A stretch of 20,174 bases of DNA from Candidatus Krumholzibacteriota bacterium (lineage in GTDB: Bacteria > Krumholzibacteriota > Krumholzibacteriia > LZORAL124-64-63), in NCBI GenBank assembly GCA_039714075.1, contig JBDLKA010000065.1, positions 1 through 20,174 on the forward strand, in the 5' to 3' direction. The notes beneath the pieces are model-generated. The model made no database searches. It was not told the DNA's origin and saw nothing but the letters and a program-made list of their open reading frames with translations. Positions 11,431 through 20,174 of the stretch are shown piece by piece. The position numbers were made by a program, and so were the translations under genes. Position 1 is the first letter of the stretch. The number at the start of each line of letters is the position of its first letter.

Positions 11431-12867
11431 CTATTCCGGAATGATCTTCCAGCCGATGCGGCCCTGCAGCTTGTGCATGAAGGTCGTGTGGATCATGCGC
11501 TTCATCCAGGCCCCGGCCAATCCCATTTCCATGTGCGTGACGAACGGGTCGCGCCCTTCCTCGTTGGGGTAGCGCCGGTTGTCCGGCACCACGGGATAGA
11601 CCATGATCACGGCGGCGGAACCGTCCCACAGGCTGTCCCCCATCGAAGCGATGCAGGCGGCGGCCATTTCCGTCATGCGTTCGCTGTGGGTCATCCGTCC
11701 GTGCTGCACCAGGTCGATGATGTTCAGGGCCACGATCCGGCCGATGATGCCCGAAACCATGCCGGTCCGCGGCGGCGCCGGGGTCATCGGCACGCCGTTG
11801 GGATTCACGTGGGGTCTGGAAATCGGTCCGGGCGGCGCGAAAGCGATACCGGCGGCGAAAATGTTCCGGTAGTTGGGATTCTGGTACACGGCGGGCCAGG
11901 CGTCGGGATTGCCCGCCAGGGTTTCGTAATCCAGACCGTAGATACCGTCCACCGAAACGAAGCCGGCCGGATTGACGATCTTTTCCGAGACATCCTGGCC
12001 TTCGGCCCCGAGGAATTTCAACGGCTGGCCCAGGAACCGCGGAATGAGCATCGCGTAATCGAATTTCGTTTCGCCGGAATTTCCCTCCATGTCCTGCCAA
12101 CCCGCGACGCCGGCGGCAACTTCGGTGACTCCGCGGCCGACCAGAGGCTTGATCTCGTAGTCCCTGAACACCGCGCCGATGAAGTCCTCGGCGGTGCGGC
12201 GCCGGCCCCGGTGCTGGACCGCCAGACCGCGAATGCCGAAGTCGCCCAGCTCCGGTTCGTTGGACAGGTAGGCCAGGTCGCACTTGGTGCGGACGTTTCG
12301 CCTGACAAGATCCTTGTGGACGTTGGTGATGTATTCCAGGGCCGCGCCCTGGCAGGTGGCCCCGCCGTGGCCGGTGCCGATGACGATGCGCTGCCGTTCG
12401 CCCTTTTCCATCCTGGCCACGGCTTCGAGGTAATTGTTCCTCGCATCGACCGCGTGGGGCGGGGTGCAGATGGACCAGCTGTGACCCGCGGCCGGTCCCA
12501 GACCCGGGGTGGCCTCGAAATCCAGCTTGGGGCCCGTGGCGATCAGGAGGTAGTCATAATCCACCTGGACCGGTTGGCTGCCCTCGGCGGCCGGTTCGAC
12601 CACGACGTGCTGGTCGTCCGCGTGCACCTCGGTCGCCCGGCCGGCGATGAAAGTCACGTTGCGCCTGCGGTAGACTTTTTCCAGATCGAAAAGGGTCTTG
12701 TTGATGTCCATGCGGCCGATACCGACCCAGACCAGGGAGGGGATGTAGACAAAATCAGGTGACCGGTTGATCACGGTCACCTGATGGTCGCGGCCCAGCT
12801 TGTCCCCCAGGTACAAGGCCGCGGTATGTCCGGCGAACCCGGCTCCGATGACACAGATTCTCGCCAT
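11431..12867 (-). CDS. sqr: Sulfide:quinone oxidoreductase family flavoprotein
   Basis: GAGFAG FAD motif, YIPSLVWVGIG, YDYLLIATGP, Cys motifs SICTPPHA, ATCQGAALEY and AACIASMG, NIFAAGIA, PRTG. Confidence 0.85.
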   Translation of the reverse strand: MARICVIGAGFAGHTAALYLGDKLGRDHQVTVINRSPDFVYIPSLVWVGIGRMDINKTLFDLEKVYRRRNVTFIAGRATEVHADDQHVVVEPAAEGSQPVQVDYDYLLIATGPKLDFEATPGLGPAAGHSWSICTPPHAVDARNNYLEAVARMEKGERQRIVIGTGHGGATCQGAALEYITNVHKDLVRRNVRTKCDLAYLSNEPELGDFGIRGLAVQHRGRRRTAEDFIGAVFRDYEIKPLVGRGVTEVAAGVAGWQDMEGNSGETKFDYAMLIPRFLGQPLKFLGAEGQDVSEKIVNPAGFVSVDGIYGLDYETLAGNPDAWPAVYQNPNYRNIFAAGIAFAPPGPISRPHVNPNGVPMTPAPPRTGMVSGIIGRIVALNIIDLVQHGRMTHSERMTEMAAACIASMGDSLWDGSAAVIMVYPVVPDNRRYPNEEGRDPFVTHMEMGLAGAWMKRMIHTTFMHKLQGRIGWKIIPE

Positions 12868-12894: not shown

Positions 12895-14853
12895 TCAATG
12901 AACGAGCATGATGCTGGTTCTTTCCTCCCGGCCGAGGGCTTCCAGGACAAAAACATAAGTCCCCGAGGCCAGCCGCGCACCACCCTGGCCGGTGCCGTCC
13001 CAGAGGAAATGGTTTTCCCCGGCAACTCCTGCCATGCTGCCCAGGTCTTTGACCATCCCGCCGCGGATATCATGGATCCGGGCGCGGACTGTCGCGTCGT
13101 TGCCCAGGGTGTAGCGGATCTCCGTAACGGGAACGGAACCGTTTCCGAAGGGATTGGGAACGGCTCCGATCAGCCGGGGCACGTTCGCCACCACGGCCAG
13201 GGTGACCGGTCGGGACGTGGTCCCGGCCCCGTTGTCCGTATTGCCGATCTGCAAGGTCGTCTGGTGCCGGCCCACGCCCAGATCCGCGGCGGCCGCCGTC
13301 AGCGCCACAGTCACCTGGACCGTTCCGCCCACGGGAATCGACCCGGCGCCGGGAGTGGCGGTCAGCCAGGGTTCGGAAACGGCGGCGGAGAACGCAGCCA
13401 CCCTGTCACCGGTATTGGTCAGGGTGTAGACGATTTCCACCGGTTCAAACGGTCCCCCGATCACTCCGTAGGACTCCAGTCCCGTCCCCGGTTCAACCGC
13501 GAAACTGGTAAAGAAGGGGTCGATGGTCTCGACCGTCGCCGCTCCGGTTCCCAGAGGATCCAGCCAGTCGCTCAACCGGGAGTCGCTGGTTCCTCCCCCG
13601 GCCCAGGACACGAAGAACCGGCCGTACCAATCGGACTCATTGTTGCCGCAGGCGGCGGCCCCGCCGTGGAGCTGTCCGACTACGTGATGGTCCTGGTCGA
13701 ACAGCGGGGAGCCGGAAGACCCACCCTCGGTCGTCCCGGCGTCCCAGTCGATGACCCGCAAGTGGGTGCCGTCGCCGGGGCTGCCCACACCCTGGTACGA
13801 TGTCACGGACAACGGATCATTCTCGAAACTGATGCTCTTTTCATCGGTGCTGGGGTGATGAATGCAAACGGCGCTGGAAGCCACGCCGCTGGTTCGGTCC
13901 CAGCCGGCATAGCGGACGTTGAAGGCCGAATCGGGCAGATCGTCCAGTTCCAGGAGGGTCACATCGGTAGTCTCGTACTCCGCCCGCAACACCGACCCGT
14001 TTTGGGTGTCGGTCCGGGTTCCTCCTCCCTGCTGACCGCATTCGGGGCTCTCGAAGTTCCAGTAGACGACCACCGAGGGCGCCGCACCGGCCCTGACGCC
14101 GCAATGGTACGCCGTCATGAAGTAGGGCGTCCCGTCCTCGGCCGTATTGTTGGTCATGTACCCCGTACAGAGTTTGCCCGCGTTCGAAGTGAAGAGGGCC
14201 ACGGTGGCGATTTCGTTCCGCCAGTCATCGCCCTCGGGACAGACGACATCGATGTTGCAAGGTCCCGATTTTTCTTCCAGATCCTCCCCGAAAAAACGGT
14301 ACCCCCTGCCGATGGCCGTCAGTTCCAGTTCCACCTGCCAGCGAAGGGCCGGATCCACTTCCAGTTCGACCACCACATCATCGGTAATCAGGACCTGGGT
14401 CCACAATTCGCCATGGGCGGCGTTGTCGGTTTCATCGAAGGCCAGGACAGGGCCCTCGCCCGTGGGGGAATAGATCAGCAGGCGCGCCTGATGCGGCAGC
14501 CAGAATCGTGTGAACCCGAAGTTCAGCGACAGGACGTCCGGACCGGTGATCCGCAGCCGCCAGAGACTTCGTCCCGAGGGCAGATCTTCCCAGGTCCCCG
14601 CCGCGTCCGGGGTCAGGGAAACTTCCTGGACCTGGGCGAACCGGTAGGGCAATCCCTGTTCCTCGCGTTCCAGATCTTCCCGGGCCAGGGAGGTGCGGTC
14701 AATATCCAGCGCCCGGAAACCCTCCACCTCGGCCAAGGGTCGAACGGGCCATAACGAGCCCGCGGGCAGGGCATCCGCCCCCAACAGCACCTGGGGCATT
14801 ACCGTTGCCAGAAGCAGAACCGCCAGACTCAGAGTCCTAAACCGGAATATCAT
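12895..14853 (-). CDS. Secreted lysyl-endopeptidase-like (Achromobacter protease I type, trypsin fold) protease with Ig/BACON-like linker and C-terminal FlgD/T9SS-CTD-like domain
   Basis: Signal peptide, SGPCNIDVVCPEG, CTGYMTNNTAEDG, TAYHC, DVTLLEL and TEGGSSGSPLF. Tail has PNPF, WDG and ASGTY motifs. Confidence 0.9.
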   Translation of the reverse strand: MIFRFRTLSLAVLLLATVMPQVLLGADALPAGSLWPVRPLAEVEGFRALDIDRTSLAREDLEREEQGLPYRFAQVQEVSLTPDAAGTWEDLPSGRSLWRLRITGPDVLSLNFGFTRFWLPHQARLLIYSPTGEGPVLAFDETDNAAHGELWTQVLITDDVVVELEVDPALRWQVELELTAIGRGYRFFGEDLEEKSGPCNIDVVCPEGDDWRNEIATVALFTSNAGKLCTGYMTNNTAEDGTPYFMTAYHCGVRAGAAPSVVVYWNFESPECGQQGGGTRTDTQNGSVLRAEYETTDVTLLELDDLPDSAFNVRYAGWDRTSGVASSAVCIHHPSTDEKSISFENDPLSVTSYQGVGSPGDGTHLRVIDWDAGTTEGGSSGSPLFDQDHHVVGQLHGGAAACGNNESDWYGRFFVSWAGGGTSDSRLSDWLDPLGTGAATVETIDPFFTSFAVEPGTGLESYGVIGGPFEPVEIVYTLTNTGDRVAAFSAAVSEPWLTATPGAGSIPVGGTVQVTVALTAAAADLGVGRHQTTLQIGNTDNGAGTTSRPVTLAVVANVPRLIGAVPNPFGNGSVPVTEIRYTLGNDATVRARIHDIRGGMVKDLGSMAGVAGENHFLWDGTGQGGARLASGTYVFVLEALGREERTSIMLVH

Positions 14854-18196: not shown

Positions 18197-18772
18197 CTAC
18201 CGATACATACTCTTCACAGCCCCCCAATGAGCACTCTTCACCGCGACTTCCCCACCGTTGATGACCGCCACAGGTAGGTCATATGAGCCGGAAGTTGGAT
18301 GGAGGGGAATTATGGTCCCTGGCGATCCATCATTTGCTTCATATACCGCGTCCCCATAATTCAGGGGGGGATAGTCGAGCGGTTGAATGAAAAGGTCCAC
18401 TCTTTCTGTCGGTGCCAGAACGTGAACTTGAAATCGCACCACAGGAAGGATTTCCGCTTGGGGCACCGGCGGCTCGGCACCGAATATCCATTCAATATTG
18501 CATATCCCCAATTGGGGTCCCAGCAAGTTGTCGCCGCATGGCCCCTCATATGGCAGGGTCCAGAATCCTTTCATTGCGAAACCTGAAAGACCTGATTGAG
18601 AACTGATGTTCTTGAGGATGACCCAGGCAATCACGTCCTCGGGGGACTGCGTGGTTTGGACGGTGGAAGTCAATCCTTCTTCATCGAAGTAGATCCCTAC
18701 CACATCCTGATCCTGGGCTATTGCGGTGCCCGTCAGGACGATAAAGGCGATCAATACCAAGTTGCGAATCAC
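18197..18772 (-). CDS. Secreted hypothetical protein, divergent member of the WGxVKxxYR family
   Basis: GTG start after GGAGG, signal peptide, VGIYFD, SGSYDLPVAVIN, C-terminus VAVKSAHWGAVKSMYR. Confidence 0.85.
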   Translation of the reverse strand: MIRNLVLIAFIVLTGTAIAQDQDVVGIYFDEEGLTSTVQTTQSPEDVIAWVILKNISSQSGLSGFAMKGFWTLPYEGPCGDNLLGPQLGICNIEWIFGAEPPVPQAEILPVVRFQVHVLAPTERVDLFIQPLDYPPLNYGDAVYEANDGSPGTIIPLHPTSGSYDLPVAVINGGEVAVKSAHWGAVKSMYR

Positions 18773-18787
18773 GATAGTACCTCCCGG

Positions 18788-19393
18788 TCACCGATACAGC
18801 GACTTCACCCCGCCCCAGGCGGCGCTCTTCACAGCTACCGGCTGGTGGCCTGTATTGACTTCAGCCACCGGCAGGTTCACGTTGCCCGAGGAAACGCCCA
18901 CACTCATGATGACATAATCTTCGTTCAAGATTGCAGGCAGGCCGCCGGGGATGGATGGATGGGACGGCGGCCCAAGGTAGAATTCGATGGTTATTGGTTC
19001 AAAGGTGAGAAACAACCAATGCACCAGAATCGTTGCCTCGCTGGTGGGATATGGTAGGCCCATGCCTACATAGTATTCACCGCTCACGGCGGTATTCATT
19101 TCATCGAGGAAAATCGAGGTTGGTGGCAATGTATCCGCCAATCGGAAAATCAAACCCTCCATCCCCGTCGGCACAACCAACTCATAACCGAACTCAAAGG
19201 CTTGGACATGGTCCCAGGTGGGATTGGTCAGAGTGACATACGCCCAGAATTCCGTATCGGGCGCCACGTCCAGGTAAGTCACGTCCGCGTTCAAATCGAA
19301 GTAGACCCCGAGGGAATTGGGATCGGGATCCACGACCGCGCCAACGGAGCCGTCGAGAAAAATCAGCAGAAATACCGTAAAAAGGGTTTTCAT
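18788..19393 (-). CDS. Secreted hypothetical protein, WGxVKxxYR family (copy A)
   Basis: Start MKTLF after AAAGGGG, signal peptide, LGVYFD, C-terminus PVAVKSAAWGGVKSLYR. Confidence 0.88.
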   Translation of the reverse strand: MKTLFTVFLLIFLDGSVGAVVDPDPNSLGVYFDLNADVTYLDVAPDTEFWAYVTLTNPTWDHVQAFEFGYELVVPTGMEGLIFRLADTLPPTSIFLDEMNTAVSGEYYVGMGLPYPTSEATILVHWLFLTFEPITIEFYLGPPSHPSIPGGLPAILNEDYVIMSVGVSSGNVNLPVAEVNTGHQPVAVKSAAWGGVKSLYR

Positions 19394-19503
19394 GACGATG
19401 CCCCTTTGCATCCCGGAATGGCAAGACCCCCCGGGGGACCCTGTTTTTGATTATCCGCACAGTTTTCCGAGGTCAACCTTGGATTTTTCGGACGAAATCT
19501 CAA

Positions 19504-20106
19504 CTACCGATAAAGCGACTTCACCCCGCCCCAGGTCGCACTCTCCGCGACCACCGGCTGGTGGCCCGTGTTGACCTCGGCTACCGGCACGGTCACATCG
19601 CCCGAGGAGATGCCAAGGCTGATCAGCTCGTCGTTTTCATTCATGACCACCGGGAACCCGTCGGGAAGACTCGGTGCGGATGAGGGGCCCAGGTGGTATT
19701 CGATGGTCATGGGCGCGAGAGTCATGAACAGCCACTCCACCAGAACCGTCGCGGCGCTGGTGGGAAGTGGAGGGGTCAACCCGAAAATGTAGTCGCCCTT
19801 GAGAAAGTATGGGAATATGGGGCAACACTCATGGGGTGGAATGATGGTTGCCAAGCGGAACAACATGCCCTCCATACCCGCCGGAACAACCGATTCGTAG
19901 CCGAATTCAATCCCTTTTACAAAACCGAAGGTCGGATTGGTCAGGATGACGTACGCCCGGAATTCGGTATCGGGCGCCACGTCCAGGTAGGTCACGTCCG
20001 CGTTCAGATCGAAGTAGATGCCCAGGGAATTGGGATCGGGATCCACGACCGCGACGGCGGAACCGACAAGAAATATCATCAATAAAAATGTGAAAAGGGT
20101 TTTCAT
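19504..20106 (-). CDS. Secreted hypothetical protein, WGxVKxxYR family (copy B)
   Basis: About 64% identical to copy A by manual alignment; C-terminus PVVAESATWGGVKSLYR. Confidence 0.88.
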   Translation of the reverse strand: MKTLFTFLLMIFLVGSAVAVVDPDPNSLGIYFDLNADVTYLDVAPDTEFRAYVILTNPTFGFVKGIEFGYESVVPAGMEGMLFRLATIIPPHECCPIFPYFLKGDYIFGLTPPLPTSAATVLVEWLFMTLAPMTIEYHLGPSSAPSLPDGFPVVMNENDELISLGISSGDVTVPVAEVNTGHQPVVAESATWGGVKSLYR

Positions 20107-20174
20107 GACGAAGCCCCTTTGCATCCTGGAATGGTAAGGCCCCCCGGGGGACCCTGTTTTTGATGATCCGCACA

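Follow-up and report, generated by a model that had tools for sequence, protein, structure and literature searches.

What is the short peptide that ends three adjacent secreted proteins on a Candidatus Krumholzibacteriota contig, and what does it do for the proteins that carry it? The window considered here is the whole stretch of 20,174 nucleotides that was analysed, which is an entire contig (C65; JBDLKA010000065.1) of a 4.06-Mb genome assembly (GCA_039714075.1) that is 92% complete. A sequence-only reading of this DNA had described three adjacent secreted proteins with a G[IV]YFD motif and a shared C-terminal tail, and had taken the tail as a sorting signal of an expanded family of surface proteins. 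Three minus-strand open reading frames (ORFs), here called genes A, B and C, carry both elements. The sorting-signal part of that reading is supported by our analysis, and its one-family scope is wrong: the tail is a genome-wide tag rather than a feature of one expanded surface family. It occupies the place of the C-terminal domain (CTD) used in type IX secretion (T9SS).

The features on which the argument depends are as follows.

19504..20106, minus strand: gene A, signal peptide plus predicted cohesin-like domain plus tail; 200 aa from the likely ATG
18788..19393, minus strand: gene B, 201 aa; paralogue of A and its tandem duplicate, including the upstream region
18197..18772, minus strand: gene C, 191 aa with a GTG start; divergent paralogue of the same cohesin-like family
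20050..20106, minus strand: predicted Sec signal peptide of gene A, 19 aa (sequence, hydropathy heuristic and AlphaFold2 (AF2) helix 2-14)
19561..20040, minus strand: predicted cohesin-like beta-sandwich of gene A, residues 23-182 (VIA-align, Foldseek)
19507..19554, minus strand: 16-residue tail of gene A, linker V-V-A-E plus W-G-G-V-K-S-L-Y-R
18791..18838, minus strand: 16-residue tail of gene B
18200..18247, minus strand: 16-residue tail of gene C
20107..20174, minus strand: upstream unit with a second copy ahead of gene B (75% identity by blastn across 675 nt); the contig ends within it

The C-terminal ends read ...HQPVVAESATWGGVKSLYR in gene A, ...HQPVAVKSAAWGGVKSLYR in gene B and ...GGEVAVKSAHWGAVKSMYR in gene C. 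Body identity is 62% between A and B, 35% between A and C and 25% between B and C, and the last 16 residues are identical at 12/16, 10/16 and 13/16 positions, respectively. With tail identity this high and the body of C at 25 to 35%, gene C has diverged in its body and retained its tail, just as the sequence-only reading had it. A further motif given there as SG..(L/V)PVA.(I/V)N is present in the array proteins with a spacer of three residues, not two.

A modular tail found throughout the genome

The tail consensus is P-V-[APG]-[VT]-E-x-x-S-[WF]-G-S-[VLI]-K-[AS]-L-[YF]-R-stop. When a loose regular expression was run over six frames, 48 of 54 matches lay within three residues of a stop codon, one of the 48 being a spurious short ORF. 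A hidden Markov model (HMM) iterated from these seeds, with a threshold of at least 10 bits, placed 75 of 77 matches within five residues of the stop, which yields 75 ORFs of this genome; the two non-terminal matches at or above 10 bits are both in spurious short frames. The reversed-pattern control returned no matches against 56 real ones in this genome, and the tail is thus real and not a product of chance.

Conservation within the tail is strong. In 71 of 74 aligned tails, tryptophan or phenylalanine stands exactly nine residues from the end, and the ninth tail position is arginine in 65/74, this being the final residue in most. The lysine frequency within the HMM-found set is partly set by construction, and a set chosen by body similarity alone is of use here: among 120 homologues of one tail protein, 117 carry the tail pattern, two carry variant tails and one has a CTD, with the lysine retained in 118 of the 119 tail-bearing homologues (one variant has arginine in its place). 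Homologues of gene A keep the tail in 66 of 67 cases.

The bodies to which the tail is attached are diverse. The 75 tail ORFs fall into 40 BLAST body clusters, the largest of which has 24 members and includes genes A, B and C. Outside the window lie 72 further tail proteins; 10 have a Pfam match and 62 have none, and the domains concerned are LTD (two), CBM20 (two), beta-helix, AhpC, C39, Big_13, Temptin_C and DUF5128. A soluble signal-peptide class was assigned by a permissive hydropathy heuristic to 59/74 tail proteins and to 468/1825 size-matched controls (p 3e-21), and any signal peptide to 66/74 and 681/1825; the tail proteins outside the soluble class comprise seven with a signal plus a second hydrophobic stretch and eight without a call. 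The motif is therefore not confined to one family, is strictly C-terminal and is enriched on signal-peptide proteins.

The suggestion that the tail lacks a transmembrane helix and does not match LPxTG, PEP-CTERM or T9SS CTD signals also holds. The mean best 15-residue Kyte-Doolittle score in the last 30 residues is 0.65, and none of the Pfam and NCBIfam models, those for T9SS included, matches the 61 tail peptides searched beyond single scattered chance matches. The helical moment of the tail is 0.52 versus 0.38±0.02 for shuffled sequences, and its strand moment is 0.51. A literature search, covering few subscription journals, gave no account of this modular tail, and Pfam and NCBIfam do not describe it either.

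Two tail proteins of this genome (G000) are predicted lipoproteins, and a paralogue on C27 ends exactly where the tail would start (C57:17947-20466 (L052) and C27:8175-8789).

The tail in the place of a type IX C-terminal domain

A local CTD profile finds 147 proteins of this genome that end in a FlgD-type CTD (a PF13860 search gives 148 matches), and none of the 75 tail proteins carries one, so that the mutual exclusivity proposed in the earlier reading is complete. Tail proteins have a median length of 212 aa versus 703 aa for CTD proteins. Exchanges on the same body are also seen: the tail protein at C110:4211-5059 is 65% identical in its body to the CTD protein at C106:228-1202, with tail and CTD starting at the same point, and a second same-position swap is seen between P0068 and P0172. 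The tail thus occupies the place of a T9SS CTD.

The linkers ahead of the two elements can also be compared. CTD linkers of this genome contain [ST]-[AGPDSN]-V-[EDPGNT] in 63/124 cases versus 10.4±3.0 in shuffled sequences, and under a position-specific scoring matrix of the tail linker they outscore 200/200 shuffles. PorU cuts in a disordered linker of this kind and transpeptidates the cargo to anionic lipopolysaccharide (PMC5562754). The published Prevotella cleavage consensus is PT/GI, and the shortest known CTDs are described as 43-55 aa with three strands and motifs B, D and E (PMC11969387). A near-terminal lysine is described as almost invariant in type A CTDs (PMC10994853).

Linkage to a second PorU-like peptidase

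The T9SS genes of this genome include SprA, six PorV-family genes above the cut-off and a canonical PorU (466.8 bits) beside PorV. A second PorU-like gene, here called PorU2 and located at C2:4222-8574, is immediately preceded by three tail genes and a dockerin-like gene. PorU2 scores 162.8 bits on NF033707 and so falls below the cut-off of 420; it has a C25 domain (PF01364, 176.6 bits) and a PorU-like terminal CTD, and its sole PDB match is PorU (6ZA2). The catalytic residues His963 and Cys1004 are invariant in 61/61 aligned sequences.

At 26 of 28 loci from the family of the window, and at 32/39 loci from the rest of the class, the 1.5 kb upstream of PorU2 contain the end of a tail gene on the same strand; in the latter set four genomes gave two loci each. 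In other lineages the count is 4/18 within 1.5 kb and 10/18 within about 7 kb, and at canonical PorU loci it is 0/24. Loci with fewer than 300 upstream bases are omitted from these counts (two family, one class, two other-lineage and six canonical PorU loci), and by our own arithmetic, taking 75 tails in 4.06 Mb, the chance expectation is about 1-3%. The small tail genes ahead of PorU2 often number two to four per cassette, and a dockerin-like gene is present in 28 of 40 class PorU2 loci. In an unrooted FastTree tree of 127 sequences, built without sequences shorter than 900 aa and without half of the family-level PorU2 set, canonical PorU (PorU1) forms one clade with support 1.0 and PorU2 falls outside it. 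PorV is adjacent at 27/30 PorU1 loci versus 0/90 PorU2 loci.

Two further observations concern these loci. In this genome PorU2 is followed by a gene for a SpoIID/LytB lipoprotein and by nagZ (L020:8624-11460), SpoIID being found in many PorU2 loci of several families. Some genomes have two PorU2-clade genes (L236/L237, L265/L266, L268/L269, L270/L271 and L363/L364); tail genes lie upstream of a single member in four of the five pairs, and of neither member in G193.

Predicted cohesin-like bodies and dockerin-like genes

An AF2 model of gene A, built on a 67-sequence alignment, is a beta-sandwich in which most 10-residue blocks have a predicted local distance difference test (pLDDT) score above 90; the tail has a pLDDT of 54-68 and, in this model, does not pack onto the fold. 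The best VIA-align match is 5nrk_A (Z 11.4, root mean square deviation 2.8 Å over 128 aligned residues), the top 19 rows are all cohesins or cohesin-like modules (Z 8.4-11.4), and domains of Gram-positive pilins come below them at Z 7-8. Foldseek likewise places cohesins first (E 6.9e-5). The cohesin fold guessed at in the sequence-only reading was thus found with both programs on the predicted model, and the array bodies are predicted to have a cohesin-like fold. The cohesin family PF00963 has no match to genes A, B or C and one match elsewhere in the genome, and a PDB sequence search with the gene A family profile gave nothing significant.

In this genome the gene A family profile finds 30 proteins, of which 24 have the tail, five have a CTD (seven domains among them) and one has neither. 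Since the domain also exists without the tail in CTD proteins, and the tail is modelled at low confidence beside a well-defined body, the tail is not integral to the fold. The idea that it is merely the conserved last element of one family's fold might draw on its retention in 66/67 gene A homologues, and is refuted by the same two observations together with the 40 unrelated body clusters.

Possible partners are encoded in the genome. Three proteins of the genome have Pfam dockerins, and a family of small secreted proteins ends in two dockerin-like EF-hand repeats plus a terminal cysteine, with neither tail nor CTD (L020:1625-2035; G000 C5:70464, C13:49595, C46:10613, C85:15276 and C138:5265). 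One member, at C2:1625-2038, sits in the PorU2 cassette. The name dockerin-like is our reading of the motif, this partner having no Pfam match and no significant PDB match. Elsewhere in the genome, a CTD protein with four tandem Pfam dockerins (G000 C34:26280-27698) would be an inverted scaffoldin.

Occurrence across genomes

Of 151 phylum genomes, 143 contain the tail pattern at the DNA level; the control gave three matches in total. Seven of the eight pattern-negative genomes were examined (G120 being omitted), and all seven have variant tails beside PorU2; they are therefore not true negatives. A scan of a wider collection gave at least 127 tail loci in records labelled Eisenbacteria, Latescibacterota, Krumholzibacteriota, Gemmatimonadota, Zixibacteria and unnamed bacteria, although the lineage labels of these records are unreliable. 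Among the genomes behind these matches, 32/34 have 2-63 tail-pattern matches. The scan matches L141 and L197 are false, the last codon being TGG rather than a stop. An occurrence in cultured Fibrobacter was rejected: the Fibrobacteraceae-labelled PorU2 matches share contig positions with members of the window's family, and those of G172 and G177 score in the range of that family.

The phylum of G170, labelled Zixibacteria, presents a special case. A single near-invariant tail is found there in 16 of 51 genomes on a conserved secreted protein of about 140 aa, which is single copy, downstream of rex and away from PorU (L345-L360, e.g., L347:8853-9344, minus strand); two further genomes have one other tail-like match each. 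The sequence TWGKIKALF is invariant in 14/14 aligned proteins, and body identity falls to 27-37%. The tail is modelled as an unpacked helix, and the body is predicted to have a small transthyretin/CnaB-like fold on the basis of weak Foldseek matches. This protein is a candidate for an ancestral or special use of the tail.

Proposed mechanism and alternatives

Which of export, anchoring or assembly, the three roles offered in the sequence-only reading, the tail performs is something we infer. It can be hypothesized, with about an even chance of being correct, that the tail is a miniature sorting signal that is cut by PorU2 and used to anchor the protein on the cell surface. The tail proteins would be exported by Sec, as their heuristically called signal peptides suggest, and would then cross the outer membrane, probably through the SprA translocon with a PorV-family barrel. 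By analogy with PorU, PorU2 may recognize the helix W/F-G-x-V-K-x-L-Y/F-R and cleave the linker, probably at V|[APG]-[VT]-E with release of about 15 residues, before it transpeptidates the new C terminus onto a surface acceptor. From their fold and gene linkage, the array proteins could act as single-cohesin anchors, offering docking faces for dockerin-like proteins in the way of the clostridial single-cohesin anchors OlpA/SdbA and ScaE. A broader picture is more doubtful and is put forward tentatively: several uncultured phyla related to the Fibrobacteres-Chlorobi-Bacteroidetes group might possess a second surface-attachment pathway parallel to type IX secretion, in which a dedicated PorU2 without an adjacent PorV reads a helical tail of 16 residues. 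This tail would be the shortest signal so far linked to a sortase of the PorU type. Dozens of small proteins would be displayed in this way, among them a family of cohesin anchors forming a docking layer, similar to a cellulosome, on a Gram-negative cell.

Several observations weigh against a tail that is read and cut by PorU2. The genomes compared are related and not independent, and the linkage may reflect one ancestral operon; the counts thus show a conserved cassette and not independent events. The tail linker mostly has valine (56/71) where CTD linkers have serine or threonine. The tail itself, at 16 aa and modelled by AF2 as a short helix, is far shorter than the shortest three-strand CTDs of 43-55 aa, and it is therefore unlikely to bind PorV as type A cargo does. 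Among possible carriers, a standalone PorV/Q-like barrel (C1) is present in all tail-rich genomes tested, yet it is non-discriminating because weaker full-length matches occur in Zixibacteria-labelled genomes; no carrier peculiar to tail-rich lineages was found. The GldM and GldN models have no match in this 92% complete genome, nor in the control genomes. All 40 Zixibacteria-labelled genomes searched have one PorU-like gene each, and the 19 examined (19/19) belong to the PorU1 clade with PorV adjacent. Strong conservation of the tail where no PorU2 was found suggests that the tail is older than PorU2 or has another reader as well. G187, for which completeness is not given, has 63 pattern matches and only PorU1 was found. 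Finally, there are the two tail proteins that are predicted lipoproteins.

Some of these points are accommodated if the tail is left uncleaved and serves as a noncovalent tag for docking or export, its amphipathic helix binding a conserved envelope partner such as a T9SS barrel, SprA or a surface of PorU2, with PorU2 linked as a binding platform or for historical reasons. The invariant TWGKIKALF on drifting bodies in genomes where no PorU2 was found would fit such a tag, as would the unpacked helix in both AF2 models and the raised helical moment; the strand moment is just as high, however, and neither the invariant catalytic histidine and cysteine of PorU2 nor the resemblance of the tail linker to a CTD cleavage linker would be expected of it, and we regard it as unlikely, though deserving of some weight. 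An improbable proposal is that the tail proteins are periplasmic or face the periplasm from the outer membrane, the tail directing processing or attachment there, for example to peptidoglycan. It is favored by the SpoIID/LytB gene, which is present at most PorU2 loci of the family and also in several further families and has nagZ as its neighbor in this genome, by the two lipoproteins, by the conserved dockerin-like gene of the cassette that has neither tail nor CTD in this genome, and by the failure to find a tail-specific outer membrane carrier. Yet the PorU-type CTD at the end of PorU2 suggests a position on the cell surface, paralogues of the same bodies carry T9SS CTDs, and CBM20, LTD and beta-helix bodies are typical of surface cargo.

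The cassette, with its dockerin-like gene and small tail genes followed by PorU2, also resembles pilin genes with a dedicated sortase. PorU2 might then be a pilus-type polymerase comparable to class C sortases, chaining cohesin-like tail proteins into chains or a surface layer with the other tail proteins as tips or decorations. Although pilin domains do follow cohesins in the fold search, the cohesins clearly outrank them, the cohesin-like domain is present in only 24/75 tail proteins, and no pilin-type acceptor motif was seen, none having been searched for; we give this polymerase little credence. The tail could also be imagined as a mini-dockerin for the cohesin family. This is not supported: the cohesin-like proteins themselves bear the tail, dockerin-like genes are already part of the cassette, and the Zixibacteria-labelled tail protein appears from its weak Foldseek matches to have a different fold.

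Comparison with known sorting systems

The tail would work like a T9SS or sortase signal, yet it belongs neither to the type A CTDs nor to the tripartite signals. The closest system is the type A CTD (TIGR04183/PF18962; here of the FlgD_ig PF13860 type) with PorU and PorV of Porphyromonas gingivalis (PDB 6ZA2; PMC5562754). Like a type A CTD, the tail follows a flexible linker at the C terminus, with a small residue and then valine or isoleucine, is found on predicted Sec-exported cargo with unrelated bodies, is interchangeable with a CTD on the same body and has a near-terminal lysine plus a terminal basic residue; as in T9SS, the genome encodes a C25-family peptidase with a vestigial CTD. In contrast to the 43-100 residues of beta-sheet in type A CTDs, however, the tail has 16 residues, a predicted helix and a W/F-G motif, is linked to a separate PorU clade that is never beside PorV, and sits on small cargo with valine, not serine or threonine, before the presumed cut. 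The short CTDs of Prevotella intermedia are a useful parallel: they show that T9SS signals can become shorter and still be cleaved and glycosylated, but, unlike the tail, these signals keep three beta-strands, motifs B, D and E, 43-55 aa and an ordinary PorU/PorV (PMC11969387).

The resemblance to other systems is more limited. In the cellulosomal single-cohesin anchors OlpA (PDB 3UL4) and ScaE (cohesin PDB 2ZF9), as predicted for the array proteins, one cohesin-fold domain precedes a C-terminal element at the anchor position, and here too there are dockerin-like genes nearby; the array proteins differ in having about 10% sequence identity to them, no PF00963 match and a diderm host. With tripartite C-terminal signals the tail shares its shortness, its presence on many unrelated secreted proteins and the clustering of cargo genes with a dedicated protease, but it has no transmembrane helix or basic cluster, and it is linked to a secreted C25 peptidase instead of a membrane protease. 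Such tripartite signals include LPXTG with sortase, PEP-CTERM with exosortase, GlyGly-CTERM and MYXO-CTERM, and OlpA and ScaE are themselves anchored through S-layer homology domains or LPXTG. The signal of the beta-barrel assembly machinery is a terminal aromatic residue on a beta-barrel; the tail, unlike it, ends mostly in arginine, and the predicted gene A body is a sandwich, not a barrel.

If the proposed function is correct, a 16-residue peptide would suffice to route a folded protein to a diderm surface or to have it joined to an acceptor by a secreted sortase. This would challenge the view of type IX signals as necessarily folded beta-domains carried by PorV, and could provide a protein-ligation tool. 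The tail also makes it possible to annotate about 2% of this genome's genes (75 out of about 3,300 predicted), along with thousands of proteins listed as "hypothetical" in Krumholzibacteriota, Eisenbacteria and related lineages, a hidden cohesin family among them.

Origin of the array and neighboring genes

Genes A, B and C have no family in Pfam or NCBIfam, and their homologue clusters are most frequent in Ca. Krumholzibacteriota. Longer alternative starts exist for gene A (at 20124) and gene B (at 19411). Signal peptides in the array were called by our own hydropathy heuristic together with the AF2 N-terminal helix, and that of gene B has an aspartate within its h-region. Genes A and B are a tandem duplicate with 75% DNA identity over 675 nt that includes the upstream region, and their duplication is, judging from this comparison, recent. 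The array has a GC content of 55% versus 62% for the rest of the contig. Beside the flanking pseudouridine synthase gene, 3/3 same-genus genomes have another gene at this site (1.5 kb examined), and the array therefore looks like a recent insertion. Short relatives of its upstream unit are found on contigs C6 and C20.

One further feature of the window relates to type IX secretion.

12895..14853, minus strand: trypsin-like protein with a FlgD-type T9SS CTD instead of the tail (PF13365, PF13860)

This protein looks like a secreted protease of the lysyl-endopeptidase type with an Ig domain ahead of its CTD and would be ordinary T9SS cargo. Next to it, positions 11431-12867 encode a flavin adenine dinucleotide-dependent oxidoreductase with the look of a sulfide:quinone reductase, a name that rests on a Pyr_redox_2 match only.

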